In this document: positions 1,753 through 27,689 of the stretch, one piece after another
Layout of the letters: the number at the start of each line of letters is the position of its first letter
Position numbering within the stretch: position 1 is the first letter of the stretch
Origin: a virus
Taxonomy: Duplodnaviria > Caudoviricetes
Reading direction: 5' to 3' (one strand)
Length of the DNA: 29,435 nt
Virus record (IMG/VR): IMGVR_UViG_3300037722_000646
Span: 1-29,435 of that record
Notes under the pieces: generated by a model
What the model saw: only the letters and a program-made list of their open reading frames with translations
What the model was told of the DNA's origin: nothing
Databases searched by the model: none
Position numbers and translations under genes: made by a program

Positions 1753-1781
1753 TTGCCAACCAACCGCTTACCCCATACGTT
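1753..1781 (+). promoter_or_regulatory. Sigma70-like promoter for the head operon
   Basis: TTGCCA-N17-TACGTT upstream of the scaffold gene. Confidence 0.55.
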
Positions 1782-1794: not shown

Positions 1795-1857
1795 GCACGC
1801 AGGTTGAGGCCCACATGAGGCCCCCACGGGAGCAATCCCACGGGGGCCTTTGTCGTT
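1795..1857 (+). promoter_or_regulatory. Structured leader, copy 1 (GCACGCAGG, GAGGCCC x2, hairpin with GCAA loop)
   Basis: AGGCCCCC(1818-25) pairs with GGGGGCCT(1842-49) around GGGA-GCAA-TCCC, followed by TTGTCGTT. Related copies at 6670 and 18632. Confidence 0.55.
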
Positions 1858-1899
1858 CCGGGCGGGAGACCCGCCCCACACTCGGGGGATCCGATTCGC

Positions 1900-2610
1900 A
1901 TGGCGAAATTGGCGGGAGTGGTCGAGTCGTTGGACGCAGTCGAGGAGGGGTATCGCGGGGCCTATGTCGAGCAGGACGGGAAGTTTGTGCTTGACGCGGA
2001 CATCGAGGGGCACCCCGCGGTTGGGGCGCTGAAGCGGGCCCTGGACAGCGAACGCAAGATCACGAAAGAGGCGCTGCGAAAGGCGCAGGCCGCTGGAGAC
2101 CCGGCGGAGATCGAGCGGCTCAAGGCCGAGCTCGATGAGCTGAAAGGGAAGTCCGGTGGAGAGCCGAAGCCCCCGGATGCCGAGAAGCTCCGGAAGAAGT
2201 GGGAAGAGGAGAATGCGCCGAAGTTCAAGGCTCTGGAGGACGAACGGGACAAGGCCCTCGGCGAACTGCGGACCCTCCGGCTGGACGACAAGGTCCGGGA
2301 GTCAGCACTCAAGGCTGGGGTGCTACCGGAGGACATGGACGACGTGCTGTTGATCACCAAGCGGTACTTCACGCTGGACGCGGAGAACCGGGTGGTGATG
2401 CTGGATGAGGACGGGGACCCGACGGGCACGACGCCCGAGAAGTGGTTCACCGATGTGTTCAAGGTCAAAAAGCCCAAGTATTTCAAGGGTACCGGCAATG
2501 CGGGAAGCGGCGCCAAAGGCAGCGACGGGAGACCCGATTCGGCTGCGGAGTTGGACAAGCTGCCCCCCGCAGCACGGCTGACCCGTGCTCGTGCGATGGG
2601 GCTCCAATAG
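1900..2610 (+). CDS. Phage capsid scaffolding protein
   Basis: Charged coiled-coil protein directly before the MCP, with LKRALDSER and a C-terminal KPKYFKG..GSGAKGS tail typical of scaffolds. Confidence 0.8.
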   Translation: MAKLAGVVESLDAVEEGYRGAYVEQDGKFVLDADIEGHPAVGALKRALDSERKITKEALRKAQAAGDPAEIERLKAELDELKGKSGGEPKPPDAEKLRKKWEEENAPKFKALEDERDKALGELRTLRLDDKVRESALKAGVLPEDMDDVLLITKRYFTLDAENRVVMLDEDGDPTGTTPEKWFTDVFKVKKPKYFKGTGNAGSGAKGSDGRPDSAAELDKLPPAARLTRARAMGLQ

Positions 2611-2637
2611 CATCACCCCAACGCGGAGTAGTGCCTC

Positions 2638-3567
2638 GTGGCCCTCACACTGGTAGAAGCCGCCAAACTCGAAAGCGGCACCGTCCTGCAGCGGTCGATC
2701 ATTGAGATGTTCGCCCGTGAGTCCGACATCCTGCGTACCCTGCCGTTCCAGCCCATCGCAGGCAACGCGCTCAAGTACAACCAAGAGCAAGCCCTCCCGG
2801 GGATTGCCTTCCGCGGCGTCAACGAGGCGTACTCGGAGTCCGTCGGCGTCCTGAATCCCAAGGTCGAGCCGCTCGTGATCGCCGGGGGGGACCTCGATGT
2901 GGACAAGTTCATCGTCTCCACGATGGGGCCCGAACAGCGGGCGACCCATGAGCAGATGAAGGTCAAGGCCCTGGCCGCCGAGATCACGCGGGCGTTCATC
3001 AAGGGCGACTCGCAGACCGAACCCCGTGAATTCGACGGCCTCCAGGCGCGCCTGACCGGCGGGCAGCTGATCGACGCCGGGTCGGCATCGGGCGGCGACG
3101 CCCTCTCGCTGGCCCTACTCGACGAGCTGATCGACGCCGTCGATTCCCCAACCCACCTCATCATGTCCAAGGCGATGCGCCGGCGGCTAACGGCTGCTGC
3201 TCGGACGACCACGGTAGGGGGCTACGTGACCTACACCCAGGACGAGTTCGGTCGTCGGCTCGCGCAGTACAACGACCTGCCGATCCTGGTGCCCTACAGC
3301 GAGAACGGCGGCACCGAACCCATCGCCTTTGACGAGGCCAATCCGGGGGGCGGGTCGGCCGTCGGCACGTCGATCTACTGCGTGTCGTTCGGCGAGGGCC
3401 GACTCCAGGGAATCCAGAACAAGACCATGGAGGTCACCGACCTCGGCGAACTGCAGACCGCGCCGGTGTACCGGACCCGTGTCGAGTGGTTTGCGGGGAT
3501 CGCCGTGTTCCACGGCCGAGCCGCTGCTCGGCTCCGTGGCATCAAGAGCGCCGCGGTTGTGGCGTAA
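2638..3567 (+). CDS. Major capsid protein (HK97 fold; resembles the epsilon15 gp7/BPP-1-like group)
   Basis: 309 aa with MALTLVEAAKL, LPGIAFRGVNEAY, GGDLDVDKFIV, EFDGL and AAARLRGI, placed after the scaffold. Confidence 0.88.
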   Translation: MALTLVEAAKLESGTVLQRSIIEMFARESDILRTLPFQPIAGNALKYNQEQALPGIAFRGVNEAYSESVGVLNPKVEPLVIAGGDLDVDKFIVSTMGPEQRATHEQMKVKALAAEITRAFIKGDSQTEPREFDGLQARLTGGQLIDAGSASGGDALSLALLDELIDAVDSPTHLIMSKAMRRRLTAAARTTTVGGYVTYTQDEFGRRLAQYNDLPILVPYSENGGTEPIAFDEANPGGGSAVGTSIYCVSFGEGRLQGIQNKTMEVTDLGELQTAPVYRTRVEWFAGIAVFHGRAAARLRGIKSAAVVA

Positions 3568-3573
3568 GTCACG

Positions 3574-4083
3574 ATGCCAGACTCCTTCAGCTTCCAAGTG
3601 ACGAGCTCGGCGGGCGCCGGGCTCAAGGACTTCGAGGAACTCCCGATTACTGGAGAACTCGAGGTGTCAGGGACCACGCTGCGCCTGGCGGTCCCCAAGA
3701 TCAAAGTGCTGACCGAAACCCATCTCGCCTCCAGCTTCACGGACGGGGGGACCACGGTGGGCACCAAGACGTTCACGGGGAGCCTTCCCGCCGGGGCGGT
3801 GATCTTAGGGACCAAGGTCCTGGTCCCTGCCGGGTTTGCGGGGGACACGACGGCCGCCCTCACGATCGGCGACGGATCGGACGTCGATCGGTACAACACC
3901 AGCACGGTGGACATCTTCGCGACGGCGGCGGCGGGTGTGGAGTCGGGGGTGCCGAGTGGCGCCGTGCTCCAGGTCGCCGCCGTTGCCCCGGTCCTCACGG
4001 TCACGTCGACGGCGGATTTCACCTCGGTGGTCTCCGGGGGCGGGTCGGTCACGGTCAGCATCTACTACATCCAGACGGTCTAA
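3574..4083 (+). CDS. Putative capsid decoration/cement protein
   Basis: Beta-rich (LPAGAVIL...ALTIGDGSDVDRY...VTVSIYY), immediately after the MCP. Confidence 0.55.
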   Translation: MPDSFSFQVTSSAGAGLKDFEELPITGELEVSGTTLRLAVPKIKVLTETHLASSFTDGGTTVGTKTFTGSLPAGAVILGTKVLVPAGFAGDTTAALTIGDGSDVDRYNTSTVDIFATAAAGVESGVPSGAVLQVAAVAPVLTVTSTADFTSVVSGGGSVTVSIYYIQTV

Positions 4084-4098
4084 CGGAGGCACCACACC

Positions 4099-4533
4099 AT
4101 GTCCCAGCAAAAGAATTACACGTTCGACAAGAGCCTGCAGTTGAAGGACGATGGCCTGGTGGCCGCGTCGGCCGCTGCGGAAGTGGCGTCGGTGGCCAAG
4201 ATCCTGGACCTTGGGGATGGTCGCGTCGACGCCGTGGTGGTCTTGGACATCAGCGCGATCGAGGTCGCGTCGGGTGACGAGTCGTACCACATCGAGGCCC
4301 AGTTCTCCAATGACTCGGCCTTCGGCTCCACCAACATCGTGGGGTCGGTCCTCAAGACCGGCGACTCGAGCGTCAATTTCGGGTCGGCGGATACCGTCGT
4401 CGGGCGCTACGAACTGCCGGTCACGAACGAGTTCGCGGGCACCCGGTACCGCTACATGCGGCTCTACACGCGCATTGCCGGGGCGATCGCGACGGGCATC
4501 AACTACACCGGCTGGCTGGCTGTGGCGGCGTAA
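4099..4533 (+). CDS. Putative capsid cement/decoration protein (jelly-roll-like)
   Basis: SD GGAGG; ILDLGDG...YRYMRLYTRIAG...INYTGWL; head-module position. Confidence 0.6.
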   Translation: MSQQKNYTFDKSLQLKDDGLVAASAAAEVASVAKILDLGDGRVDAVVVLDISAIEVASGDESYHIEAQFSNDSAFGSTNIVGSVLKTGDSSVNFGSADTVVGRYELPVTNEFAGTRYRYMRLYTRIAGAIATGINYTGWLAVAA

Positions 4534-4534
4534 A

Positions 4535-4903
4535 GTGGACCACAAGGTTTTGGTACGGGAACGTGCGACTGGTCAGGTCATTCGTGCTTGGCCGGTTGAC
4601 GCCCGCGAACTGATCGCGTCCGGCGAATTCGAGGCGGGGGACGACGCGTCCGAGCGCATTGCACTCGGGGAGGCGGCCTTTCCGTTGGGGCCCCGTGTCA
4701 CGACCACCCTTGGGAAGATGGGTCAGGCGACGCCTCTCCCGCTGACCAAGCCGACGACGACAACGACGATCCACGTCTCGGAATCCGTCGGCACGACCTC
4801 GGAATCCATCGGCACGATCCTATTCGAGGTTCCCGACGTGCCCACTAAGGCCAAGCCCCGGACCCGGACCAAGCGCTCGGCCAAGCCGAAGGGCAAGAAG
4901 TAA
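4535..4903 (+). CDS. Small phage head-region protein
   Basis: GTG start one base after the previous stop; WPVDARELIASGEF motif and a basic K/R-rich tail. The ORF track's 4151 start appears over-extended. Confidence 0.55.
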   Translation: MDHKVLVRERATGQVIRAWPVDARELIASGEFEAGDDASERIALGEAAFPLGPRVTTTLGKMGQATPLPLTKPTTTTTIHVSESVGTTSESIGTILFEVPDVPTKAKPRTRTKRSAKPKGKK

Positions 4904-4906
4904 CCG

Positions 4907-5431
4907 ATGGCCGTCGCGCTCGTGGCCACCGTCGGCGGGGCAAATAGTAATTCATACGCCACGCTGGCGGATGCTGCGACGCTCGCCGAGGAGCTCTGGC
5001 CGACCCCGGTCTCCTGGCTGGCCGCCGGAGATCAGGACACGCGGGCTCGCTGTCTGGTGGAGGCGACCCGCATCCTGGATACCCTGACCCCGCCCGGGGC
5101 CTTAGCGGCCACGACGCAGGCCCTCCGGTGGCCCCGGGAAGGGGTCTCCAAGCAGGGCGGATCAGGTGAGTTGTACCTGTCAACCGAGATACCCGCCGAT
5201 GTGATCCGGGCCCAAATCCTCTTGGCCATGTGGCTGCTCGACCAAACGACCGATCCGGCGCTGGCGGCGGACGCGGGCCTGTCGTCCATCAGCTTCGGGG
5301 GTACGCTCAGTATGTCCTTCGAGCCGGGGGCTACGGGCAAGAGCCCGCTCGAGCGGTTCCTGTACCAGCGGATCTTCCCGGTGCTGGGGCCGCTGGTCTA
5401 CATGCCGCAACCCCGGATCGTGCGCGGATGA
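4907..5431 (+). CDS. Head-tail connector/adaptor (DnaT-like phage family)
   Basis: ANSNSYATLADA...LVEATRILD...QALRWPR...IPADVIRAQILLA. Confidence 0.75.
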   Translation: MAVALVATVGGANSNSYATLADAATLAEELWPTPVSWLAAGDQDTRARCLVEATRILDTLTPPGALAATTQALRWPREGVSKQGGSGELYLSTEIPADVIRAQILLAMWLLDQTTDPALAADAGLSSISFGGTLSMSFEPGATGKSPLERFLYQRIFPVLGPLVYMPQPRIVRG

Positions 5432-5760
5432 ACCTCGGCGCGTTGGTTGAGTCCGCGTTCCGCCGGGCGCCTCAGGGCGTGACGGGTGACGTGATGTTTA
5501 CGGCCACGGATGGGCGGACCACCACGGGCTTGGCCTGTGGGGTGCCAGAATCGGGATCGAGCGGCGACGGGTTCAAAGAGCGGCAGATGGTGCGTCACCG
5601 GGCCCGGCGGTTGACGGTGCTCCCCGTGGGCCTCGCGTTCGCGCCGGAGCCCGGGATGATTGCGGAATGGGCGGGGATGAAGTGGACGGTCTTGTCGGCT
5701 CCACCGCTAGCCCCTGATGGGGCCACCGTCCTGAGTTACGACGTGGTGCTGCAGCGATGA
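5428..5760 (+). CDS. Head closure/head-tail joining protein
   Basis: ATGA overlap; PEPGMIAEWAGMKWTVLSAPPLAPDG...YDVVLQR; neck position. Confidence 0.6.
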   Translation: MNLGALVESAFRRAPQGVTGDVMFTATDGRTTTGLACGVPESGSSGDGFKERQMVRHRARRLTVLPVGLAFAPEPGMIAEWAGMKWTVLSAPPLAPDGATVLSYDVVLQR

Positions 5761-6242
5761 AGGGCGATCTCGGGACGTTCACGGCCGACCTGTCCCGGTG
5801 GCAGGCCAAGTTGCCAGGTCAAGCTGACCTCCTGGTGCAGGGGTTCAGTCAGACCGTGTTCAACGAGGTGCAGTCGGGCGGGAAGTACTCGCCGGGAACG
5901 CCGATCGCGAGCGGGTTCGCGCGGGCCAACTGGGACGGGGGCGTCGGGGCGATCCCGAGCAACCCGCCGACCATCACCGCCGAGGCGGCCGAGGCCAACC
6001 CGGCGGCTGGGCGAGCGGCGGCAGCCGAGGCAGGACGACGGACGGCAACCGCGATCCTCACGGCCAAGGCGGGCGATCGGATCTACCTGTCGAACACGGC
6101 GTGGTATATCCGCCGGCTCGAGTTCGGGTGGTCGACGCAAGCGCCGGGTGGCTTCATTCGGTTGGCGCTCAACTCCGCCCAGGCGATCGCCGACGAGGTC
6201 GGTGCGTTTCTGGTGAAGCGGGGCCTCCGTGGGGCTCAGTGA
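5757..6242 (+). CDS. HK97 gp10-like tail completion protein
   Basis: TPIASGFARANW...IYLSNTAWYIRRLEFGWSTQAPGGFIR. Confidence 0.8.
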   Translation: MKGDLGTFTADLSRWQAKLPGQADLLVQGFSQTVFNEVQSGGKYSPGTPIASGFARANWDGGVGAIPSNPPTITAEAAEANPAAGRAAAAEAGRRTATAILTAKAGDRIYLSNTAWYIRRLEFGWSTQAPGGFIRLALNSAQAIADEVGAFLVKRGLRGAQ

Positions 6243-6660
6243 GGATCTGCGGACCGCTCTCGCCGCTCGCGTCGGCACAGTGGCCGGGATCCCCGGAGCC
6301 GACTACCGGGCAGGGGAGAACGCGGTGTTCGAGCCCCCGATCGGGGAGACGTGGCTCCGGGAGACGCTGGTGTTCGGGGCCCGGACCCGCCTGACGGCTC
6401 CCGCCGATGGGGCCTGGCTGCAACACACCGGGCTGTACTTAGTGGATGTGTTCCACCCGGAGAACCTGGGGCCGGGCGCGGCGGACACCTTGGCGGACGC
6501 GGTGCTGACCCAGTTCGCGGACGGGCAGCAATACACCACGCCGAGCGGGTTGCTCCGCATCACCCGGGCCACGCGCCGGGGCGGATTCCGCGCGGAGGGC
6601 TGGTATCAGGTGCCGGTGGAAATCGGCTGGGAAATCGAGACGGTGCAGACGGTGATGTAA
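6229..6660 (+). CDS. Tail terminator-like protein
   Basis: ENAVFEPP..WLR...GLYLVDVFHP...WYQVPVEIGW, directly before the tail tube. Confidence 0.7.
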   Translation: MGLSEDLRTALAARVGTVAGIPGADYRAGENAVFEPPIGETWLRETLVFGARTRLTAPADGAWLQHTGLYLVDVFHPENLGPGAADTLADAVLTQFADGQQYTTPSGLLRITRATRRGGFRAEGWYQVPVEIGWEIETVQTVM

Positions 6661-6669
6661 TCACCCCAC

Positions 6670-6730
6670 GCACAGCAGGATCACAGTAGGCTCTGAGGCC
6701 CCTGAGGCCCGAACGGATCAGGGGGATCTC
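6670..6730 (+). promoter_or_regulatory. Structured leader, copy 2, before the tail tube gene
   Basis: GCACAGCAGG...TGAGGCCCCTGAGGCCC. CCCCTGA pairs with TCAGGGG, which overlaps the likely RBS. Confidence 0.5.
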
Positions 6731-7945
6731 ATGGCCATTGCGGCGGGCGTCAATAAGTCGGTACGGATCAAAAAGGAGTCGGTGTTCGGCACGGCGCCGG
6801 GCGCGACCGGGGCCGTCCTGCTCCGCCGGGTGACCTCCGGGATCGATCTGGTCAAAGACACCTACGAATCAGCGGAAATCGTCTCGACGTTCCAGCGGTC
6901 GGACTTCCGCCACGGGACCCGGCGCGTCGAAGGATCGATCGACGGGGAACTGTCGCCCGGCACCTACCAGTTGCTGCTGGCGGCTGCGCTCCGCAAGGAC
7001 TTCGTGGCCGGCGCGACGACGGGAGCCATTACCACCGTCACGGCGGCGGTCGGCCCGCCGGGCACCTTCACTCGGTCCGCCGGCTCCTATCTGACCGACG
7101 GGTTCAAGGTCGGCGACATCGTCCGCTGGACCGGGTGGGCCACGGGCGGCACAAACAACAACGCCCGCAACTACCGGATCACGGTGCTCACCGCCACCGT
7201 CATGACCGTGACCGGCCTCCTCGACGAAGTCGTCGCGGCCAAGGCATCGGGCGACTCGGTGACCTGCACCGTGGTCGGCAAGAAGAGCTTCACTCCGGCC
7301 ACTGGCCACACGAACGACTCCTTCTCGGTCGAGCACTGGTTCTCGGATGTCGCCCTGAGCGAACTGTTCACCGGCTGCCGAGTGCGGAGCCTGGGCGTGC
7401 GGCTCCCCGCCACGGGCCTCGGCACACTGACGATCGGGCTGCTCGGTCAGAACATCACGACCGCCGGAGCGGCCTACTACACCTCACCCACGGCCGCCCC
7501 CACCACGGGGATCGTGGCCGCCGTCAATGGGGCGCTCCGGTTCGGCGGGTCGGACATCGCCACCGTGACGGGCATCGAACTCAACCTCGACGGCGGGATG
7601 ACCACCGAGGCGGTGGTCGGCTCCAATCAGAGCCCAGACGTGTTCCCCGGGATCGTGGCGGTCTCCGGTCAGGTGACGGTGCTGTTCGAGAACGCCACCC
7701 TGCGGGACCTGTTCCTCGATGAGACCGAAGCCGAGTTGTGGTCGTACCTCCGGCTGTCGAGCGCGATCAACTCCGACTTCCTGAGCTTCCACCTGCCCCG
7801 CATCAAGCTGGGCGGGGCACAGAAGAGCGACGGACTCCAGGGGCTGGTGCAGACGATGCCGTTCACCGCGCTGTACAACAGTGCGGGCGGCTCCGGGCTC
7901 GCCGGCGAAGCCACGACCTTGACCATCCAGGATAGTACGCTCTAA
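6731..7945 (+). CDS. Major tail (tube) protein with an inserted beta domain
   Basis: IKKESVFGTAP...LRRVTS...SAEI...VEGSIDGELS...VSGQVTVLFEN...FHLPRIK; insert GSYLTDGFKVGDIV...NNARNYRIT. Confidence 0.85.
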   Translation: MAIAAGVNKSVRIKKESVFGTAPGATGAVLLRRVTSGIDLVKDTYESAEIVSTFQRSDFRHGTRRVEGSIDGELSPGTYQLLLAAALRKDFVAGATTGAITTVTAAVGPPGTFTRSAGSYLTDGFKVGDIVRWTGWATGGTNNNARNYRITVLTATVMTVTGLLDEVVAAKASGDSVTCTVVGKKSFTPATGHTNDSFSVEHWFSDVALSELFTGCRVRSLGVRLPATGLGTLTIGLLGQNITTAGAAYYTSPTAAPTTGIVAAVNGALRFGGSDIATVTGIELNLDGGMTTEAVVGSNQSPDVFPGIVAVSGQVTVLFENATLRDLFLDETEAELWSYLRLSSAINSDFLSFHLPRIKLGGAQKSDGLQGLVQTMPFTALYNSAGGSGLAGEATTLTIQDSTL

Positions 7946-7977
7946 CCCACGCAGGACCGGGCGGGAGGCCCGTATCG

Positions 7978-8397
7978 ATGACGATGGATTTGGCACAGTT
8001 GACCCCCGTCGAGGATGGCGTCCCGATGGAGGTGGTCCACCCGGAGACCGGGCAGGTCCTCCGGGATGAGTCCGGCCAGGCGGTGACGATCACCCTCCTG
8101 GGTGAGGACAGCGAGGTCTACCAGAGCATGGAGCGGGCCAGCACCAACCGGCGGCTGAAGCAGGCGCAGCGTGGCCGGCGCGGCGGCCTGACCGCCGAGC
8201 AGCTGGCGGCCGAAGCGCTGGAACTGGTCGTGGCCTGTACGGTGGGCTGGTCGGGGGTGGTGTTCGCGGGCGGGGTGTTGGCGTACTCGGAGGCCAATGC
8301 CCGGAAGCTGTACACCGCGTTGCCGTGGTTACGGCGGCAGGTGGAGCAGTTCATCGCGGACGCTGCCAATTTTTTCGGCTCCTCGAAGACGAGCTGA
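7978..8397 (+). CDS. Tail assembly chaperone (gpG-like)
   Basis: HPETG...ITLLGEDS...ACTVGWSG...WLRRQVEQFIADAANFF, between tail tube and tape measure. Confidence 0.8.
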   Translation: MTMDLAQLTPVEDGVPMEVVHPETGQVLRDESGQAVTITLLGEDSEVYQSMERASTNRRLKQAQRGRRGGLTAEQLAAEALELVVACTVGWSGVVFAGGVLAYSEANARKLYTALPWLRRQVEQFIADAANFFGSSKTS

Positions 8398-8726
8398 TCG
8401 CCTTCGCCACGCACCAGTTTCGGCTGGAACAACGGCAGAAGGACGGTAGCTCGCTTCGAGAGCACCTGGAGAGCGCGGAGGAGCAGACCGGGCGGACGCC
8501 GGCGGAGTTGGTCAGTCCCGTGTTGCCCTACGAGTTGGAAGGGGTGTGGCGCGATTTCATGGACCTGGCGGGGCGCCGGAGCATGGGGCCGATGGGGCCC
8601 GCCCCGCTGACCTATCGAGACCTGGCCGCCTGGGCCACGCTGACCCGGCGGGTCCTGATCCAACCGGAGATCCGGATGCTGTCGCGGCTCGATGACTGCT
8701 GGCTGGCCAGTCTAGCGAAAGAGTAG
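8370..8726 (+). CDS. Frameshifted C-terminal extension of the tail chaperone (gpGT-like)
   Basis: T TTT TTC heptamer at 8370-8376. The -1 frame is open to 8726 (DGSSLREHL...VWRDFMDL...PLTYRDLAAW...LD) and has no good independent start. Confidence 0.72.
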   Translation, partial: FFRLLEDELIAFATHQFRLEQRQKDGSSLREHLESAEEQTGRTPAELVSPVLPYELEGVWRDFMDLAGRRSMGPMGPAPLTYRDLAAWATLTRRVLIQPEIRMLSRLDDCWLASLAKE

Positions 8727-8735
8727 GAGCACGCG

Positions 8736-11700
8736 ATGGACCTGGCCAAACTCACTATCGAGATCGACTCGGCTCCGGCCAAAACCGGAGCCGACCAGGC
8801 TGTGCAATCGGCCGAGCGGATCAAGACGTCGTTCGGCTCGCTTTCCCCCGTCCAAGCCAAGCTCGTGGCCGAGTTCCGGCGTCTCCAGGAGGTGCTGCGT
8901 CAGGGGGGCATCACCTTCGAGAACTACAGTCGCCTGAGCAACCAATTCACCAACGCCATGAGCAAGGGCGGGCGGGCGGCCGAACAAGCGGTCCAGTCCA
9001 TCCAGTCGGTCACCGGCTTCACGGCCAGTAGCGGCGTGGCGGCGGCCACTGCCTCAGTGAAGTGGGACAAGCTTCGCCTCCCGCTCCAACAGGCTGCCAT
9101 CAGTTTCTCCGCGATTCCCGGCCCCGTGGGCCGCGTGGTGGGCACCCTGGGCTTGCTGTCCGGCGGTGCGCTCCTGTCGGTCGGGGTCGTGGCGGGCATG
9201 GCAGCGATTACGTTGGCCATCGGGAAGCTGACCGAGCGCTCGCGCGAGGCCAAGAAGGCCACCGACGAATTAATCAAGTCCCTTCGGGCCGCCCGGGCCG
9301 AGGAATCCGGTGCGCTCTTCGCCACCCAGAAAGGGCTCTTGGCCTCGCGTCGGGCGGCGTTGGAACGGGAGATCCTGGGCAATCGCATCACGACGGCCCA
9401 ACAGGGCACCGTCACCGTCCTGCCGAGTGCCGCTCGAATCGCTGCCATCCGCAAGGAGATCACCGAACTGTACGCGGACGAGGCCCGTCTGCTGCGGAAC
9501 CGCCAAGAAGAGCACAACAAAGTGGTGCTCGCTCAACTGGCCGACGAGAAGCGACTGGCGGAGGGAACCGAGCGATTTGCCCGCGATGCCGCCGCCGAGA
9601 AGGCCCGGCTCCATGCGGCGGAATTGTCCGCCCTCAAGCTGATCGCCGACGCCACTGGCGACCCGATCCTCAAAGCCTATACCGCCCAGCTCACCCTGTT
9701 GGACCAGTTGACCGCTGTTGCCAGCAAGCTGCCGCCGATCTTCGCGGAGAAGTTGGTGGGCGCCATTGCGGCGGCGACAGCCGAAGTGGGCCACTTGGCT
9801 GAGGTCTTGGAAACGCGGGTGGCCCGGGCCCTCGCGGTGATCGGGATCACGCCTCGGGTGGCGGTCACCGGGGCGCTCCAGCCAGCGACCCCTTTGCCGA
9901 GTCAGCGGGACCCCTTTGCCGGGGAGGTGGTCACCCGGCGCGAAGAGATCGAACTCTCGGCACAGGCCCGCCAAGCGTCCATCGATTACGCGGTCTCGCT
10001 GGGGCTGGTCAGCTATCGCACCGGGCGCGCCCTGTCGGCCCTGAGCCGGATGGCAGAGGTGATCCAAGAGTTCGGGCGCAGCAGCAAGGAAGCCGCGGTC
10101 ACGATCGCGCTGGCGGTGGCGGCGTTGGCCAACCTGGTCATCACCGGCAAGAGCACGGGCGCCCGCATTGCCCGGGGGGCCATCGGTGGAGCGGGGGCTG
10201 GGTTCGTGCTTGGCGGGCCAGTCGGTGCAGCGATTGGTGGGGTCGCCGGTGGCCTCGGTGGGCTGCTCGGCGGGGATGGTGGCCAGAAGTCACGAGACAT
10301 CGAGGCGCTGACGGAAGCGATCAAGCGCTTCGCAGAGCAGGCGCGACACCTGACCCCACTTCAAGAATCGCTGGATCGGCTGGAGAAGGAATACAAGGAG
10401 CTGCTGGTCACGGCGAAGGCCCTCGGGGAACCCACCCGGAAGATTGCGCAGGCGTACGCACGTCAGGTCCAGGAAGCGAAGGACCTGTTCGCGCAGCAGG
10501 AGTTTGCGTTCCAGAAAGGGCTGGAGGTGCGACGGCTCGAACTGGAAGGTACGGAGGCAGAGGCAGCCACCGCCGCGTTGGCGCTCCGTCAAGCCGAACA
10601 GATTGCCGAGGCAGCGAAGCAGGGATATGGGGCAGCAACGACAGCCGTGTTGCAGCATGTCCATGCCTTAGAGAAGGAGAAGCTGGCACTCGACCAAGCG
10701 GTGGCCGCGATCCAGCAGAAGTCGGAGGCAGAACAGTTTCTTGGTGACCTCGAGGCCAGAGAACTGGCCTTGGTCGGTGATAAGGCCGGGGCGGCTCGTA
10801 AGCGACTAGAGAACCAGGCTCTTGCCGCGCAGCGTGAAGCAGAGGCGTTGTTCGCAGCGGGCACGATCACGGAGGACATCTTTGACCGACTGACCGGGGT
10901 CATCAATGGAGAACTGAACGTCGCGCTCGAAGAGCTTGGGACCACCGTCGACGAGACTGGGAAACAGATCAACGCCTTCGTCGCTCGGGCACGCGAGGAT
11001 CTTGAGGTTCGCAGACTGGTTGCCTTGGGGTTAACTGAGGAAGCGGCGGCACGACAGGTGGTGTTGGATCAGCAGCGGGAGATCAACACCCTGATTGAGC
11101 AGGGGGCGGATGAGGCCACGCTTGCTCTCGCGAAGTACGTGCAGTCGTTGGAGGCGACAGCCGCGTGGATTGACCGCGTCACAGCGGCGGAGGAGAAGCG
11201 GCTACGTGTTCTGGAGTTGACGGCCCGCAAAGAAGAGGACTTGGCGGTACGCGAGTTACGGGCATTGGGCAGGACAGCGGGCGCCGACGAATTGGCGCAA
11301 ATCCAGCGGAATGCAGCAGAGCTCCGAGATGCACTTGAGCAGGGGTTGGGTCAGGCGGTGATCGACAACATCATCCGGGTGCAGGGCATCGAGCGCGGGG
11401 CAGCGGATGCGGCGCGGCGGGCCGCGCAGGAAGAGGCGTTCCTGAAGGGCAGTACGTCCCTCGGGGGCGGCCTGGAGGCGGAAAGCCGAACCAGCTTCAA
11501 TGCCGCCGTCGGGATCACCGAGAGTCAGGCCAACCGGCTGGCGGGCCTGATGCAGACGCAGGTGGTCTACCAGGCCAACCTACCCGACATGCGTGCGGCT
11601 CTCCGGGAATTGGTGCAGTTGGCGCGAATCGGGCGGGGCCTCGTGGGGTCCAATCTGGACATTGAGGCGATCGACGCCGCGCTCGAGGGCCGGAGTAGCA

Positions 11701-11741: not shown

Positions 11742-12532
11742 TGGCAACGCTCTATGTGGCGGGGGTCGACCTGGAGGCGACGCTCGGCTTCCAGTTCACC
11801 GACGAGGGGGAGGTTTTGAGCGGGGCGGTGGCGATCCCGACCGAGATCGAGATCCCAACGATGCGCGGGGCGCTGTTCGTCGCCCCCCATCGGGTGCCCG
11901 TCCGGGAGTTCACCCTCCGAGGCTACCTCAACGGCGCCACGCAGGCGGCGGTACGGACCAACCTGAAGAAGCTCGTCGCGCTCGTCGGTGAGGATCAGGT
12001 CACGGTCCGCGTGGCCGACTGGTCCGATGTCCAGATCACCGCCAAGTGCGTGCGGTTCCCAGCGGCCAATTACCCGCCCGCCCAGTTGGCCCCCCCCGTG
12101 CGGGTCGAGATGACGTTCCGGGCTCCGAATCCCTACTGGCAGGACACGACCCCCCAAGCCATCGCGTTCACCACGTCCGCCGTGGCGATGCCCCAGGGCA
12201 CCGCACCCAGCGAACCGGTCCTGACGACGGCCGTGGGGGCCGCCACGACGCCGATGATTACCGCGAAGGACTACGTCGGGGGCACCCTGTGGACCGCCAC
12301 CCTTGCCTCGCTCAGTGCCTCAGAACGCTACCGGATCACCACGGCTCCCGGGGCGATGACGATCGAGCGGTGGGACGGCGCGGTCTGGGTGGCGGACGAG
12401 GACGCGCTCACCGCCGGGATTTTCCCACGGCCGCTGCCGAGTAACGGGACCGGCTACCAGACGAGCGCCTGGCCGACGCTCCAAGCAACCACCGGGTCGT
12501 GGACCGCCACCTACAATCGCCAGTGGAGGTAG
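11741..12532 (+). CDS. Distal tail (Dit-like) protein
   Basis: TAATG coupling to the TMP; REFTLRGYL...VEMTFRAPNPYW. Confidence 0.7.
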   Translation: MATLYVAGVDLEATLGFQFTDEGEVLSGAVAIPTEIEIPTMRGALFVAPHRVPVREFTLRGYLNGATQAAVRTNLKKLVALVGEDQVTVRVADWSDVQITAKCVRFPAANYPPAQLAPPVRVEMTFRAPNPYWQDTTPQAIAFTTSAVAMPQGTAPSEPVLTTAVGAATTPMITAKDYVGGTLWTATLASLSASERYRITTAPGAMTIERWDGAVWVADEDALTAGIFPRPLPSNGTGYQTSAWPTLQATTGSWTATYNRQWR

Positions 12533-12574
12533 GGGCGGGACTCGGCATCACTCGTTTCACAAAGGATCTAACAG

Positions 12575-13522
12575 ATGGCTGATATCGCGATTCCCTCTCT
12601 CCCGGCTGGCAGCACGCTGACCGCTGACGATCTACTGGTTGTCGAAAACTCCCCTGGGAGCGGACCAGTCACGCAGAAATACACGCTGGCACAGCTCCAG
12701 GCGTTCGTTTTGGACCTAATAGTTAGTGCGGGGGCCAATGGCCGAATCGGTCTTAGTGATACGACCCAGGCGTGGGGTCTTGACGTACGAGGTACATTAG
12801 CAGATCAGTTCATCATCAGAGATGTCTCGGCCTCTATTGATATCCTGACGCTTCTTAAAGGCGCGGCCACTACCCCAGTCAACCGTGCACGAGTTGGGAT
12901 TGGGGTGGCAAACCCTGATCCAGGGGTAACCCTGTATCTGGCCGATGCTGACGACTGTCAGCTAAAAGTCAATAGCACTACGCCAGGTTATAGCAATACC
13001 ATCCTCTCCACTGGTTTTCAAATCAACCGCCCGGATGGTGGAAACTGCACTTTAGATGTTACCAACGCGAACGGAGACTTCCTATTTCGCTTTAACAACC
13101 CCGCTGTAGAAAAGGCACGTGTTTCCAAAGAGGGTAACCTGACACTTGCGGGCATTGCGACGATAGACACGCAGGCGATCCTTAGGAAAGTAGCAGGTGC
13201 GGCAGCCGCCCTAGTATTCGATTGGATGCAGAATGCCGCGAGCGGTAAGTATAACTGGCGCATCGGCGCGCAGATCAATGTTGACAATGGGTTCGAGATT
13301 ACCCCATCGACAGCGGTTGATGGATCAACATTCGCTACCCCGGTTTTTCAGGTTACCCAAGCTGGTGCGGCTAATGTTGCGGCGAGTCTTGCGGTAGCGG
13401 GAACAAAAGTCGTTGGTGCGCAGGGCGCTGCTGTTGCCGACGCGACCGATGCCGCCAGCGCGATTACCCAGCTCAACTTGCTCTTGGCCCGCTGTCGGGC
13501 ACACGGGCTGATCGCAACCTAA
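12575..13522 (+). CDS. Fibre/receptor-binding-like protein, lower GC than its neighbours
   Basis: IPSLPAGSTLTADDLLVV..TQKYTLAQL N-terminus; RVGIGVANP beta segments; C-terminal AVADAT...LNLLLARCRAHGLIA. Confidence 0.65.
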   Translation: MADIAIPSLPAGSTLTADDLLVVENSPGSGPVTQKYTLAQLQAFVLDLIVSAGANGRIGLSDTTQAWGLDVRGTLADQFIIRDVSASIDILTLLKGAATTPVNRARVGIGVANPDPGVTLYLADADDCQLKVNSTTPGYSNTILSTGFQINRPDGGNCTLDVTNANGDFLFRFNNPAVEKARVSKEGNLTLAGIATIDTQAILRKVAGAAAALVFDWMQNAASGKYNWRIGAQINVDNGFEITPSTAVDGSTFATPVFQVTQAGAANVAASLAVAGTKVVGAQGAAVADATDAASAITQLNLLLARCRAHGLIAT

Positions 13523-13564
13523 TGGCACGCATGAGCCCGCTGGCACCTCCGGCCGGCTAACCTC

Positions 13565-16500
13565 ATGGGGTACCTCCTTACCTCCACGAGTGACATCCTC
13601 ACGACCTCTGGTGGGGATCGCATCCTCGTCAGTGCTATCAGCGCGAGCGCTGTCGTGGGATTCCAGTACACCGAGCTCTGGACGCGATTGCAGGCGGACG
13701 GCGGGGTGCGCCTCGGCTTCCTCGGCGTGCCGGTGTCCATCCGGCGGGTGCGACGGCTGGGTGGCGAGCACCGGCTGACCATGAGCATCGCCCGGGACCA
13801 CCGGCTGGCCGCGCAGCTTGTCCGCCGGTCGGTGATCCGCGAGGTAATCAGTGCGGACGGCACCAACTGGCGCGAGTGGATTGTCGAGGTGGTCCGCAAG
13901 GGAACGCTCGACGAGGTCCTGATCGCGCTGGAGTGCGTCAGCCCGCTCCAGGCGCTCCTCAATTATCCGGTGAGCACCAGCGACGGGGACGGGTTCGTCT
14001 ACTCGGAAACCGGCGCGGTGCAGCTCACTCCCGCCGCGATTGCGGCGACGTTCCTCCGGTCCAATACGCCCGCCTGGGTGGCGGCGGGCACCGTGACGCC
14101 GACCGAGCTGGTCGACGTGGGGTTCAGCGGGGACAACGCCCTGAGCGGGTGGCGGAAGCTCGAAGAGGTCACGGGCTATGAGAAGGATCTCCGTCGCAAC
14201 GGGACCACGCAATACTTGATGGACCTGATCCGGGTGGGGGCTAGTGCCCCGGCCCTGTACCTCCGACCGGGGAAGAATCTCCGCGCTCTGCTGCGCGAAG
14301 AATCAGCCGACATGGTGACACGGGTCAACACGATCCTCGGGGCGGCGAGCGATAACGGCCCCTCGGGCATCGGGTCGGCCTATTGGGAGGTGGTGAGCCG
14401 GTCGGTGAACGACGTGGTGCTGGGGGCGATCCACGGCGGGGCTGGCCCCATCGGGTTCGACGATCAGCTGGTCGGCACCTATTGGGAGCGGCCCGATCTG
14501 ACGCGGACCCTGGTGACGGCCAGCGTGGCCGCGACGCAGACGATCACCGTCGCCGACGGGACGGGCATCACGGCGCTCGACTGGGGCCGCTTCACGGCGG
14601 ACAGCGCCGGGACGCAGTTGACCTTCCTGGAGCACCCGACGGCGGCGGCGGCGTTCGGGGTGGTGGCGGGACGGTACGAGACCGAGTGGGATGATACGGT
14701 CATCGTCAACCGGAACGCCACCATGAAGGATTGGACGACGCCCACCGCACGGCCCGATGGGTACGGGGGGTCGGGCGGCACGCTGCTGCAGATGACCACC
14801 CAGGGTACCGAGACCCTGACGGCGGGACAGGCGCTCCGGATCGTCTTGTCGGGTGTGGCGGACGGCACGGTGATCCTCAGCACCCCCTCGCGAACGTGGC
14901 CCGTCAAGGACCGGACCTCGGTGTGGTTCGCGGCGAGCTGGGTCCGGCTGCTGGCGTTGACCTCGGGCGCGTTCGGCCTCCGGCTTAAGGTCGGTGGGGC
15001 CGTCGTGGGCGCACCGATCAGCTACCGGACCCCGCTCAACGTCTGGCGGCAGTTGCAGCTCTCGGGGCTCGACCTCTCGGCCCATGTGGGCACCAGCCCG
15101 ACCGTGGTGGTCGAGCTGATCACGGTCGGGACCACGAGCGGCACGATCATCGCCGATAGCCTGTGGTGTGGCCCCGCGCAGGGCGTGCGGGCGGTGCTGG
15201 AGGGTAACGGTGGCTCGCGGATCTGGCAGGGGATCAACGCCTTCCTCGCCGAGCGGGCGATGAGCCAGCCGGCCAGTCATCGCGTGGGCCTCCTCGACCT
15301 GGCCGCGCTCGGCGTGGCTGGGCAGCCCGACGTGGTGCTGGGGCAGACCGTCAACGTCCGGGCCGAGTCCGCTCTGGTGCCCGACTTCACCACCAGAATC
15401 GTGGAGTTGGACGAGAACCCGCTGGCCCCGGCCGAGACGCAGGTGGTCATCGCCGAGGAGACGCGGCGGCTCACCAAGACCGGGCCGGTGGCGCTCTCGG
15501 TGCCGTACCTCGACCCCATCCACCTGACGACCACCAGCCGCGATAATGCCCAGGCGGCGATGAAGATCCTCGCGGAGATCACGGCCAGCGACGCCACGAC
15601 GGTGACGGTCCTGCTGGAGGTGCTCGATACGCTGGGCGGGAGTCCCACGATCAGCTATGAGGCGTTCGGCACGACCTACGTCTCCGGGTCCGGGGTGGGG
15701 CCGTATGTGTTCAACCGCCCGGCCTCGGGCGCGGGGCAGGGGCGCGTGCTGTTCACGGCGGCGCTGGCGGGTCGTGAATCGGTGTGGGATGCGGTGGATG
15801 TGATTGAGATGGCGTCGCCCGCTGGGGCGAACACCGAGTATGCCGAGTGCGTCCCCCAGATCACGGGGGTCACCGCCACGACGATCACAGTCACCGTGAC
15901 GGCCCTCACCACGGGCGGCACGCCAGAAGTGCGCCTGAAGGCCATCACCGGATCGGCCACCCTGAGCAGCGGTCCCGCGATTGACGTGGACTCTGCGAGC
16001 GGCACGGTCTGGGTCTTCAACCGGGGCGCGTTCGAGGCGGGGATGGGGCAGGTGAAGTTCGAGGCGTTCCAGACCGGGTACGAGTCGGACTTCGATTTCG
16101 TGGATATCGCCGAACAGGGACGGGACACGGTAGGGCTGCTCGTCCGAGCGCGGCAGACGGCCCAGACCGGCACTCAGCAGACGATCCGGGTGGCGGTGGC
16201 CGATCCCTATCCCCAGGGGGCGGACAGCGCCTCGATCGCCTATGTGGCCTCGGGCGTCGGGACGATCACCCCCGCGTCGCCGCAGACCGTGACGCCAGCC
16301 GCGACACTGACCGAGGCCGCCAGCACGTACAAGGACTTCGTCGTGGATCGTCCGGCCTATCTGCAGCCGACGGGTCGAGTGACGTTCACCGTGACGGCAG
16401 CGAACCGCGTGGGCGATACCGATGCCGTCGAGGTGCTGGCCCAGGTGCGCGACACGATCACCGCTAAGGCCACCGTGGTGTCCTCGGGGCCGACGAGTTA

Positions 16501-18559
16501 CGTGATCCGGGTGTCTGGGGCGAGTCTGGCGACGGCCGTGGCTACGGTGGACTGGGTGAGCAACCTGACGCCGACCCCGGCCAGCGGTGGCACCCTGAAC
16601 CTCATGACGGACATCACGGCCACCCCGGCCGCTGGGGAGTTCATCGATTACACCATCACCCGACCGGCATGGGGGACGGGGACAGGCCGGGTGCAGTTCC
16701 TGCTGACCGCCACGGGGTATGTGAGCGCGACGGTGGCGGTTGAGGTGCCCGCGGTGGAGCAGGATACCAAATACAGCGAATGCCAGGTCTCCATCTCTGG
16801 GGTCACCACCACCAGTATCACGGTGACGGTGATCGGCTTGGCGACGAGTGGCACGCCACAGGTGAAGCTGGTGGCAGTGACCGGGTCGGCGGTGCAGACG
16901 GCTGGCGCGGCCATCGGGACACTCGTGGCCAGTGGGTCGACTTGGACGTTTGATCGGGGGGCGTTCGAGTCGGGGATGGGGCAGACGCAGTTCCGCGCTG
17001 TGACCGCTGGGCATGTGGATGACGACGACTTTGCCTATATCGCGGAAATAGGTCGGGACACGGTCGGCCTGTTGACGCGGGTCCGGGTCACGGGATCCGA
17101 CAAGACCACGGTCATCGTCCGGGTGTCGGTCGCGGACCCCTATCCGCAGGGCGCTGGGAGTGCCACGATCACCTATCAGAAGTTCGATGCGACGTTGCCC
17201 GTGACCCCGGCCTCCGGCGGAACGGTGACCCCCGAGGCCACACTCACCGAGGCGGCGGGCACGTACATCGACTATACCATCACCCGGCCCGTGTATGGCC
17301 TCGGCGACGGGCAGGTGGTGTTCACGGTGACGGCCGCGAACCGCGTGGGCGACAGCGATGCGGTGGATGTGCCGGTGCAGGTACTCCCCTACACGGGGTG
17401 CGTCGTGACGGTCGTGTCGAGCACGGCGACCACGATGACGGTGAGTGTGGTTGGTTCCGCGCCGACGGGCTTCTCGACGCCGACGGTGCAGCTAGTCGGG
17501 TACACGGGGTCGGCCACGGCAAACAGCGGACTGGGGGTCGGGGTGCCAGGTGCGAGCCCACAGACCTACGTGATCAACCGGGGGGCAGCCGGAGGTGGCG
17601 CGGGGGCAGGCCGCTGGAAAGCGGTGCTGTCGGGTGCCGTGGACGACGAGGACATCCTGACGGTGCCGGAGCAGGCGAGTGCCGACACCGAGTATGCCCA
17701 ATGCACGGCGGCGGTGACATCGAGCACGGCGACGACGATCACGGTGAGTGTGTCGGCGGCAGCCACATCCCTGGGAACCCCGACCGTGGAGTTGGTCGGG
17801 TATACGGGATCGGCCACGGCAAATAGCGGGCTCGGAGTCGGGGTGCCCGGTGCGAGCCCACAAACCTATGTGATTAACCGGGGCGCGGCTGGGGGCGGCG
17901 CGGGCGCGGGCCAGTACCGGGCCGTCCTCAGTGGAGTGCAGCCAGACGACGACGTGGTGCTAGTGCCTGCCCAGTCCACCACCGATACGGGGCCGGGCGA
18001 TGGGCCGATCTTCTCCATCCAGGGGAAAGCCGATACCACCAACCCGACAACCCAGTGGGTGCTGACGTGGACGGCGACCGGCACGGTGACGGTCTCGAAG
18101 AATGGCGCAGCGTTCGGGACGCCAGCGGCCGCGGGGCTCACGTCCGGGGTGGCGTTCAACCGCCCGGCCTATGCCTCGCCCGATGATGTCTACGTATTCA
18201 AGATCGACCGGGGCGGCCAGACGATCACGGACACGCAGTTGGTGCCGTCGGTGGTGGTGCTGCCGCTGGTGCTCACCCTGAATAAAGCGGTGGGCGACGA
18301 CCCGACGGCAGGGGATGTGTCCTTCTCCTGGTCAAGTTCCGGTTTCCCGACCGGGACCACATACGACATTACCTGGACGCTGATGGACTCGGCGAGTGTG
18401 ATCTACTCATCCGACTCGGCGCTGAACGTCACGTCGCCCTATGTGGCTGTGACCTCGGGGTTTGTGACCGGCGACCAGTTCGATTTCATGGTGATAGCGA
18501 GCGACGCGAACGGGAAAACGCTGAAGACGGCAGCGCGGTCCGGCGTGGCACTGGGCTAG
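13565..18559 (+). CDS. Large tail-tip/central fibre protein with about 10 tandem beta-sandwich-like modules
   Basis: Tal-like N-half (LYLRPGKNL...VTRV...LGQTVNV..TRIVEL), a CBM-like insert, and ~100-aa T/V/G-rich repeats from about 15560. Confidence 0.75.
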   Translation: MGYLLTSTSDILTTSGGDRILVSAISASAVVGFQYTELWTRLQADGGVRLGFLGVPVSIRRVRRLGGEHRLTMSIARDHRLAAQLVRRSVIREVISADGTNWREWIVEVVRKGTLDEVLIALECVSPLQALLNYPVSTSDGDGFVYSETGAVQLTPAAIAATFLRSNTPAWVAAGTVTPTELVDVGFSGDNALSGWRKLEEVTGYEKDLRRNGTTQYLMDLIRVGASAPALYLRPGKNLRALLREESADMVTRVNTILGAASDNGPSGIGSAYWEVVSRSVNDVVLGAIHGGAGPIGFDDQLVGTYWERPDLTRTLVTASVAATQTITVADGTGITALDWGRFTADSAGTQLTFLEHPTAAAAFGVVAGRYETEWDDTVIVNRNATMKDWTTPTARPDGYGGSGGTLLQMTTQGTETLTAGQALRIVLSGVADGTVILSTPSRTWPVKDRTSVWFAASWVRLLALTSGAFGLRLKVGGAVVGAPISYRTPLNVWRQLQLSGLDLSAHVGTSPTVVVELITVGTTSGTIIADSLWCGPAQGVRAVLEGNGGSRIWQGINAFLAERAMSQPASHRVGLLDLAALGVAGQPDVVLGQTVNVRAESALVPDFTTRIVELDENPLAPAETQVVIAEETRRLTKTGPVALSVPYLDPIHLTTTSRDNAQAAMKILAEITASDATTVTVLLEVLDTLGGSPTISYEAFGTTYVSGSGVGPYVFNRPASGAGQGRVLFTAALAGRESVWDAVDVIEMASPAGANTEYAECVPQITGVTATTITVTVTALTTGGTPEVRLKAITGSATLSSGPAIDVDSASGTVWVFNRGAFEAGMGQVKFEAFQTGYESDFDFVDIAEQGRDTVGLLVRARQTAQTGTQQTIRVAVADPYPQGADSASIAYVASGVGTITPASPQTVTPAATLTEAASTYKDFVVDRPAYLQPTGRVTFTVTAANRVGDTDAVEVLAQVRDTITAKATVVSSGPTSYVIRVSGASLATAVATVDWVSNLTPTPASGGTLNLMTDITATPAAGEFIDYTITRPAWGTGTGRVQFLLTATGYVSATVAVEVPAVEQDTKYSECQVSISGVTTTSITVTVIGLATSGTPQVKLVAVTGSAVQTAGAAIGTLVASGSTWTFDRGAFESGMGQTQFRAVTAGHVDDDDFAYIAEIGRDTVGLLTRVRVTGSDKTTVIVRVSVADPYPQGAGSATITYQKFDATLPVTPASGGTVTPEATLTEAAGTYIDYTITRPVYGLGDGQVVFTVTAANRVGDSDAVDVPVQVLPYTGCVVTVVSSTATTMTVSVVGSAPTGFSTPTVQLVGYTGSATANSGLGVGVPGASPQTYVINRGAAGGGAGAGRWKAVLSGAVDDEDILTVPEQASADTEYAQCTAAVTSSTATTITVSVSAAATSLGTPTVELVGYTGSATANSGLGVGVPGASPQTYVINRGAAGGGAGAGQYRAVLSGVQPDDDVVLVPAQSTTDTGPGDGPIFSIQGKADTTNPTTQWVLTWTATGTVTVSKNGAAFGTPAAAGLTSGVAFNRPAYASPDDVYVFKIDRGGQTITDTQLVPSVVVLPLVLTLNKAVGDDPTAGDVSFSWSSSGFPTGTTYDITWTLMDSASVIYSSDSALNVTSPYVAVTSGFVTGDQFDFMVIASDANGKTLKTAARSGVALG
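17492..17911 (+). repeat. Intragenic duplication (17492-17611 and 17792-17911)
   Basis: 40 identical amino acids (LVGYTGSATANSG...GGGAGAG) 300 bp apart. Confidence 0.9.
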
Positions 18560-18586
18560 GCGGTAGGTCGCCCACCAGGCGCGGAT

Positions 18587-18615
18587 TCGACGGGGCGCAC
18601 CCGACGCGCTAGATT
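18587..18615 (+). promoter_or_regulatory. Sigma70-like promoter for the lysis/accessory block
   Basis: TCGACG-N17-TAGATT in the gap after the tail-tip gene. Confidence 0.45.
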
Positions 18616-18631
18616 ACTGGTTGGTATAGGA

Positions 18632-18698
18632 GCACCGTAGGACCACACTGAGGCCCCCGAGGCCCGCCCGCACTTGGGCACTACTGGGGGGCCTCGTC
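18632..18698 (+). promoter_or_regulatory. Structured leader, copy 3
   Basis: GCACCGTAGG...TGAGGCCCCCGAGGCCC. GAGGCCCCC(18650-58) pairs with GGGGGCCTC(18687-95) around an inner GCCC/GGGC stem. Confidence 0.55.
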
Positions 18699-26638: not shown

Positions 26639-26676
26639 AGTTGCACGGTCTGGGCGGGGTGCCCTAGCTTTGGAGT

Positions 26677-27628: not shown

Positions 27629-27677
27629 TTGACATTAGGCCCATTTGCAAGCATATTGGTTCAGTTAGAATAACTGA
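27629..27677 (+). promoter_or_regulatory. Transposase promoter with palindromes
   Basis: TTGACA-N17-CATATT; an imperfect IR flanks the -35; perfect TCAGTTA-GAA-TAACTGA at 27661-27677. Confidence 0.5.
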
Positions 27678-27689
27678 GCTAAGGGACCC

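Follow-up and report, generated by a model that had tools for sequence, protein, structure and literature searches.

The stretch of DNA analyzed here (the window; 29,435 nt, positions 1 to 29,435 of IMG/VR record IMGVR_UViG_3300037722_000646) is a 29.4-kb phage fragment with 66% G+C, classed as linear and 42% complete. Its genes run from a scaffold (1900) and a major capsid gene (2638) through connectors, a tail tube (6731), a tape measure, and Dit (11741) to a 1,664-residue tail protein ending at 18559, after which comes an accessory block with an amidase (20466). The terminase, the portal, and all early genes fall outside the fragment. Three intergenic leaders, each carrying a tandem GAGGCCC repeat, are the subject of this analysis. 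The tandem repeats resemble the RNA element bound by Com, a zinc-finger protein of phage Mu known as a one-gene translational activator. The leaders and the genes around them are as follows.

1753..1781, plus strand: predicted sigma70-type promoter of copy 1 (-35 TTGCCA at 1753-1758, 17 nt, -10 TACGTT at 1776-1781)
1795..1803, plus strand: GCAC..AGG box of copy 1, a box with occurrences in this clade alone
1806..1824, plus strand: Com-type hairpin 1, the predicted ON fold (GA, GGCC stem, 7-nt loop, GGCC stem, CC)
1818..1857, plus strand: predicted intrinsic terminator with a hairpin at 1818-1849 (-24 kcal/mol) and a weak U-rich tail
1900..2610, plus strand: head scaffolding gene (phrog_206, E = 6e-28), first gene of the putatively gated head block
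2638-3567, after the scaffold: major capsid gene (phrog_212, E = 7e-86)
6670..6690, plus strand: two ACAG(C/T)AGG boxes of copy 2
6694..6733, plus strand: predicted OFF helix of copy 2, covering the tail-tube ribosome-binding site (6720-6726) and start region, without a U-tract
6695..6710, plus strand: Com-type hairpin 2 (5-nt loop; exact match to the motif from systematic ligand evolution by exponential enrichment [SELEX])
6731..7945, plus strand: tail tube gene (PF18906, Phage_tube_2, E = 2e-36)
18587..18615, plus strand: predicted promoter of copy 3 (-35 TCGACG, 17 nt, -10 TAGATT)
18632..18641, plus strand: GCAC..AGG box of copy 3, resembling the leader of the related phage L286
18649..18701, plus strand: predicted OFF hairpin of copy 3, with the ribosome site of open reading frame (ORF) 18699 in its 3' arm (18686-18695), without a U-tract
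18650..18665, plus strand: Com-type hairpin 3 (5-nt loop; exact SELEX match)
18699..19130, plus strand: ORF 18699, first gene after copy 3 (hydrophobic N-terminus, HExxH; no family match)
20466-20981, in the window: amidase gene

The original prediction had placed GCAC..AGG sites at 1795, 6670, and 18632, followed by tandem GAGGCCC copies and by downstream complements. All of these were recovered, with the tandems at 1806/1817, 6695/6704, and 18650/18659 and the complements at 1842-1849, 6718-6726, and 18686-18695, and all three leader copies are intergenic and in the sense orientation. GAGGCCC-N2-4-GAGGCCC occurs three times in the window versus 0.01 expected and in 0/100 shuffles, a test that is post hoc because the pattern was derived from this window; the lone heptamer is mildly enriched (18 versus 10.8 expected). 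Copies 1 and 3 do begin 13 and 16 nt after TAnnTT hexamers, each with a -35-like hexamer 17 nt upstream. A promoter scanner returned no promoters in the window, as both of these sites score 8/12, under its threshold, and no promoter was seen upstream of copy 2. The proposed placement before head, tail-tube, and lysis blocks holds for the scaffold and the tail tube, but "lysis block" is loose for copy 3, since this copy precedes a signal-peptide/HExxH ORF and the amidase lies 1.8 kb further on. The putative target genes are the scaffold, the tail tube, and the HExxH ORF; the methylases of the window sit in flanking insertion elements. Hairpin 2 starts 36 nt before the tube start, and hairpin 3 starts 49 nt before ORF 18699. 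A U-rich tail is present in copy 1 alone. The other two copies end without one and carry the G-rich ribosome site of the next gene inside the 3' arm; G-runs like theirs also precede the scaffold and amidase starts. ORF 18699-19130 has an HEMLH motif and a signal-peptide-like start without a Pfam or PHROG match, and it possibly encodes a secreted zinc peptidase. A leader peptide was considered and rejected, as the starts near GAGG in copy 1 and L286 differ in position and the other copies have none.

According to PMC6483171, SELEX with a Com zinc finger yielded NGAGNNCC(N)2-3GAGNNCCNN, the two cores flanking a 3- to 4-bp stem that is always closed by C-G. The same paper describes the bound element as a loop motif CC-N2-3-GAG with accessible GA and, for mom, a Com hairpin next to the structure in which the start codon is concealed. 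The fit to the bipartite motif GAG-N2-CC-N2-3-GAG-N2-CC is exact in copies 2 and 3, and in copy 1 it is exact but for an additional base in the loop (a gap of 4). With pairing required, the strict motif is found twice in the window versus 0.047 expected, a count that 0/300 shuffles reach; with gaps of 2 to 4 allowed, it is found three times versus 0.083 expected, again reached by 0/300 shuffles. The motif with pairing was absent from 1.66 Mb of other fetched loci. A 3- to 4-bp, C-G-closed hairpin with GA in the loop is predicted in the window copies and is dominant in nascent copy 1. A structure hiding the translation start is likewise predicted for copies 2 and 3, with a terminator instead in copy 1. 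Natural sites in JD024 and Chuche, which precede a mom-like or methylase gene by 34 to 35 nt, are also recovered by the Com pattern (2/7 Com regions). The element had been described as not assignable to a known family; this was too cautious, as a closer assignment is possible through the match to the Com-binding hairpin, and not to nut, put, or qut.

The folds discussed here are computed predictions, and the OFF and ON labels are predicted likewise. In copy 1, the 5' arm of the terminator is the 3' strand of hairpin 1. When nascent prefixes are folded, hairpin 1 has a probability of 0.74 to 0.99 until the 3' arm of the terminator appears. In copy 2, the unpaired fraction from the Shine-Dalgarno sequence to the gene start rises from 0.22 to 0.53 with hairpin 2 enforced, and that of copy 3 rises from 0.14 to 0.30 with hairpin 3 enforced. 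A U-tract ends the L286 counterpart of the copy 3 OFF hairpin. The box-arm hairpin can form in 8/8 copies (three in the window and five in relatives) and is lengthened by one U-G pair in L226 and L227:2446.

Alternative folds are supported, as had been proposed, but competition of two GAGGCCC copies for one complement is not supported as the geometry of a switch. Whichever copy takes the complement, the complement stays paired, so both of those folds are OFF states. The alternative to OFF is the pairing of the two GAGGCCC copies with each other, which is possible through the palindromic GGCC (GGCC/GGCC) and yields a small hairpin that excludes the full OFF helix. Pairing in two registers, or leaky terminators that were simply copied, might still tune gene dosage with no trans factor at all. 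Such an explanation can point to the ability of either GAGGCCC to pair with the 3' complement and to close relatives that lack the element. However, the 3' arm is paired in either register, high output is required of head and tail genes, and the enrichment of neighboring ORFs described below would go unexplained; we consider it highly improbable.

Variants of the leader were sought in other phages. Rfam gave 0 window matches at the gathering threshold (a single weak ctRNA match had E = 4.7) and only tRNA on 10 relative loci, and blastn of copy 1 against isolated phages returned short chance matches only. None of the first 103 loci contained the exact tandem. Five variant copies were present in related phages (L002, L226, L227, and L286; three related phages in our tally), all of them having a promoter-like site and a tail with T residues, which is weak in L227:2446. 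Two copies, L002:6825 and L226:5843, precede the scaffold, show the promoter layout of copy 1, and were found by protein position (the L002 capsid is 75% identical). L002:854, found by a relaxed pattern, precedes the terminase region, as does L227:2446, whose position and promoter (GTGACG, 17 nt, TAnCTT) are those of L002:854. L286:8001 was found by DNA motif and follows a large tail gene, like copy 3 but with a U-tract; a promoter-like site stands at the matching post-tail position, and kinship is indicated by Dit (52% identical) and the large tail protein (37%). A compensatory G-C to A-U change has altered the terminator stem of L002, yet the box there is still GAGGCC and so does not track the 3' arm.

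The hairpin architecture was found at 5/14 terminator-like sites in the clade versus 1/274 in 89 other loci, by a definition tuned on the clade and with only L002:6825 and the L226 copy found without the motif. In the one control terminator with this architecture (L056:16680), the 5' arm bears a GA-stem-loop-stem-C hairpin whose stem differs in sequence. Searches with looser patterns were set aside. The bare tandem motif retrieved 122 loci from viral contigs, mostly collagen-like and other coding repeats, and is not discriminating. Among 91 stretches from a relaxed search, only the two L002 copies and L286 belong by context, with the rest mostly coding repeats or a stop codon plus an ordinary terminator. 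Metagenome and genome scans with scaffold alignment gave no further lineage bearing the element. L260:4424, L304:8001, and many near-identical loci show TGAGGCC, 6 nt, and then a terminator; this L260-like family has a conserved structured stretch and a TTGCCA hexamer upstream, with no clear -10.

The promoter followed at once by a terminator, seen in copy 1 and the five relative copies, would also suit a promoter-loaded, processive antiterminator of the lambda Q type, for which the tandem motif would be a by-product of GC-rich hairpin arms; the early region, moreover, is missing from the window. Several features of the copies speak against this explanation, which we regard as quite unlikely. 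No shared element was seen in the -35/-10 spacers of seven promoters (a weak alignment, inspected by eye). The box lies 13 to 33 nt after the -10, yet at a nearly fixed 4 to 6 nt before the hairpin arm. A U-tract is lacking in copies 2 and 3 and a promoter in copy 2, and the box architecture is rare at other terminators, as counted above. Direct repeats downstream of late promoters could instead be operator or activator sites acting as DNA, and the tandem 7-bp repeats, in one orientation throughout, have the look of such sites. In the window, however, their period takes the values 9 or 11, in relatives the second half follows the terminator sequence, and pairing potential is kept where a base is added on both strands, leaving a DNA site very improbable.

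In both relatives with a pre-terminase copy (L002:854 and L227:2446), a small cysteine-rich ORF comes directly after the copy, and the next gene is a probable terminase small subunit. The cysteine-rich ORFs lie at L002:919-1155 and at L227:2144-2428 and 2431-2721, and the L227 ORF may start at CTG with its ribosome site in the hairpin arm. The L002 ORF is a member of an 11-protein family in which four ligand positions are conserved (confident model, predicted local distance difference test score of 91) and aligns weakly with the L227 ORF (E = 0.015). The family has no significant Pfam, PHROG, or fold match (best Z of 4.9, root mean square deviation of 2.9, 72 aligned).

Beyond the clade, the copy 1 pattern including the terminator arm retrieved 16 further viral loci, which we grouped by shared flanks into 10 lineages. 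In six of the 10, what follows is a gene for a capsid, scaffold, prohead protease, major tail protein, lysozyme, or amidase; in one it is a ParB-methylase, and three are uninformative. These targets mirror the head, tail, and lysis-region placements of the window. A small ORF with the pattern CxxC..Cx2-4C starts at most 1 kb upstream at 7/12 loci (four near-duplicates of the 16 were left out) versus 2/262 control terminators, although the cysteine pattern was fixed after the ORFs had been seen. Five of the seven ORFs align with the Com core (L360, L361, L369, L371, and L372, with L360 and L372 alike). The L369 ORF is the only one to match PF10122, the Com family (19.5 bits, E = 7e-4, under the 22.9 cutoff), and phrog_6417 is matched by L369, L371, and Mu Com. 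Scanned over whole records at an E value of at most 0.1, PF10122 was matched in 4/16 records versus 1/100 protein-selected records.

Some of these loci carry additional features. In L371 (oriented 9966 and 10001), the Com-type hairpin that overlaps the terminator is preceded, in tandem, by another one, and L360 and L372 have a second Com-type hairpin ~45 to 50 nt upstream of the match. At L362:1664-1978, a DUF5679 zinc-ribbon ORF and a sub-cutoff PF10122 match ending a 260-codon frame both lie upstream of the leader.

Taken together, the best reading of the three leaders is a Com-type, protein-opened late-gene switch, which we consider probable. The repeats match the Com motif and overlap the predicted OFF hairpins; a Com-like zinc-ribbon protein is thus likely to capture the small hairpin. 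The original proposal of a cis-acting late-control RNA with alternative folds is supported by this analysis.

A number of observations weigh against a Com-type switch. Neither the window, which is 42% complete, nor the L002, L227, L341, and L003 records, all of them fragments (4 to 42% complete), gave a PF10122 match, and home-built Com profiles gave nothing significant in the window or the four clade fragments. The best match to a broadened Com profile in the window, a 73-residue ORF at 19700-19921 with an N-terminal CxxC and later Cys/His, is nonsignificant (E = 0.15). For the pre-terminase ORFs of L002 and L227, no relationship to Com is detectable (hhalign probability, 0.6 to 25%). Among the seven ORFs of the wider loci, that of L374 looks spurious (a shadow frame) and that of L362 is DUF5679; over the Pfam Com cutoff there were 0/16 records, as there were 0/100 protein-selected records. 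The window loops have 5 or 7 nt, and none of the three has the natural 6-nt loop of Mu and JD024. In four of the five clade copies, the loop begins differently and lacks the bound motif CC-N2-3-GAG. Five named Com-encoding phages have four forward motif matches versus four forward control matches, with no genome-wide excess; late-operon sites are thus not common to all Com phages.

The folds and the distribution of the element add to these points. Enforcing the small hairpin costs 6.3 to 12.8 kcal/mol versus 0.4 (Mu) and 1.6 (JD024). It frees the 3' arm or ribosome site in part only, and in copy 1 pairing persists in much of the terminator 3' arm. In nascent copies 2 and 3 the hairpin is minor (0.01 to 0.34). 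With a folding penalty of 6 to 13 kcal/mol, an equilibrium switch is doubtful, and capture during transcription would be needed. The small stem shows no Watson-Crick covariation; an alignment of the eight short copies misplaced the two inserted pairs. The element is present in two of five lineages with a scaffold identity of at least 39% (it is absent in L003, L346, and L238) and in 0/29 tube-upstream regions.

The sequences upstream of the boxes bear on which factor might open the switch. The GCAC..AGG box is present at all three window copies, as predicted, but it is not a general feature of the element, being missing from both pre-terminase copies of the relatives. It was not seen in the flanks of the 16 wider viral loci inspected by eye, and GCAC(N)GYAGG alone occurs at chance level (4 found, 2.2 expected, 23/100 shuffles). 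AGG recurs every 8 to 12 nt in the leaders (1782-1805, 6661-6694, and 18616-18649; also in L226 and L286). Upstream of the boxes it is found 11 times in 190 nt versus ~3 expected from the window frequency, a partly post hoc count. Such units could serve another opener of the same RNA switch, namely, a single-strand RNA-binding protein that reads AGG, for which HutP-, TRAP-, and CsrA-like proteins are analogues; an antisense RNA acting on the tandem GAGGCCC would be a further candidate. The four clade loops that depart from the Com motif and the lack of a detected Com in the clade fragments are in keeping with an opener of this sort. AGG units, however, are absent from both pre-terminase copies, and on the sense strand of the window TGAGGCCC has a single perfect complement, located within a late ORF (26044-26051), which disfavors the antisense form. 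Neither form predicts the match to the Com SELEX motif or the enrichment of four-cysteine ORFs, and we regard both as unlikely.

A Com-type switch would operate as follows. Its sequence basis is a promoter-like site (copies 1 and 3), the tandem GAG-GC-CC, and the overlapping complement. The predicted ON fold, which could not coexist with the full OFF helix, is a 4-bp GGCC/GGCC hairpin closed by C-G; as in the mom site, GA stands at the 3' end of the loop and the hairpin base has an A-C opposition. Without protein, the OFF helix is predicted to win by 10 to 13 kcal/mol in the window copies, and the late genes would be silent. The protein would bind during transcription, before the 3' arm emerges. 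Polymerase would then read through the terminator before the head genes (copy 1), and ribosomes would load on the tail-tube gene and the post-tail gene (copies 2 and 3). Judging from the other phages, the opener would be a four-cysteine zinc ribbon of 50 to 80 residues encoded in the missing part of the genome.

We propose more tentatively that Com-like zinc ribbons are a widespread master switch of tailed-phage late genes, with one protein of 50 to 80 residues reading a single kind of small hairpin during transcription, opening intrinsic terminators as well as ribosome-site hairpins in multiple operons of one phage, and with positive feedback; it is possible, though somewhat short of probable, that this extension holds. 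The feedback would come from a hairpin copy before the protein's own gene, as in the pre-terminase layout of L002 and L227. No smaller kind of phage late antiterminator than such a protein would be known, and one RNA module would serve two outputs. To our knowledge, many phages have host-type late promoters followed by terminators but no recognizable Q, N, or late activator. Should such gates be opened by Com-like zinc ribbons, these would provide a concrete, testable answer to this long-standing gap in phage late control. The parts are compact (a 60-nt leader and a protein of 50 to 80 residues) and would make a useful synthetic part.

Two aspects appear to be new here: the putative mixed wiring within one phage, with a terminator before the head genes and ribosome-site hairpins before the tail tube and post-tail genes, and the controlled enrichment of four-cysteine ORFs as neighbors. 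No role of Com in late antitermination was found in the literature searched, which left most subscription journals outside, and the supplementary candidate RNAs of PMC10690425 could include the element. A review calls the general role of Com unexplored (PMC6240691).

The ends of the window and its tail region show further features. Insertion-element-like DNA occupies both ends (1-1735 and 26621-29435), in what we take to be IS1-like elements. Each has an N6/N4 methylase gene, similar terminal sequences, and transposase-like fragments, and the left-end methylase is fused to an Mrr-like domain. The left element ends ~17 nt before the copy 1 promoter, a spot that holds the zinc-ribbon ORF in other phages. 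Two tail-chaperone frames overlap at 7978-8726, a layout usual for programmed frameshifting. The Dit of the window has no plasmid match, and its homologues P0005, P0011, and P0014 come from contigs of 39 to 54 kb; a host among the Gemmatimonadota is a conjecture.

Among known systems, the late region of lambda pairs promoter pR' with a promoter-proximal intrinsic terminator, tR', before the late genes, and Q acts through a binding element between the -35 and -10. The leaders resemble this system, nut with N, and HK022 put in having a host-type promoter and terminator before late genes (copy 1 and the five relative copies, not copies 2 and 3). They differ in that each of several operons would have a gate of its own in place of a single processive modification, and two of the three window copies look translational. 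No Q-family gene was found among the 39 window ORFs scanned; the early region is missing from the window. In a second system, BglG, SacY, and LicT stabilize a weak ribonucleic antiterminator (RAT) hairpin that overlaps the 5' arm of a terminator. The predicted antiterminator hairpin of copy 1 overlaps the terminator 5' arm in the same way, but its sequence is different and the hairpin is smaller. No CAT/PRD protein was found among the 39 window ORFs, and Rfam gave no RAT match, the RAT consensus not having been searched for directly.

Within the Com family itself, PMC6240691 places com-like genes before L-type bacteriocin, tailocin-lysis, and levansucrase genes in Pseudomonas. These resemble the present case in extending Com-family control beyond mom. 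They differ in that com stands directly before a single target, and the passages on them describe no terminator or multi-operon late regulon. The closest likeness is to Com/mom (PF10122; PMC6483171), which shares the bipartite GAG-N2-CC in a short C-G-closed hairpin, the GA in the loop, and the A-C opposition. The hairpin also adjoins an inhibitory hairpin in both, and copy 2 lies 36 nt from its start versus 34 to 35 nt for natural sites. In contrast, there are three sites here, before structural and post-tail genes, versus one in the mom system, before mom or a methylase. One output here is a terminator, the overlap with the OFF helix is deeper (6 to 13 versus 0.4 to 1.6 kcal/mol), the loops have 5 and 7 nt rather than 6, and no com gene overlaps the site. 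Because the element targets virion and post-tail genes and one of its outputs is a terminator, it falls outside the com-mom system as defined. By analogy, the element would work like the Com/mom switch, with copy 1 also working like a RAT antiterminator.

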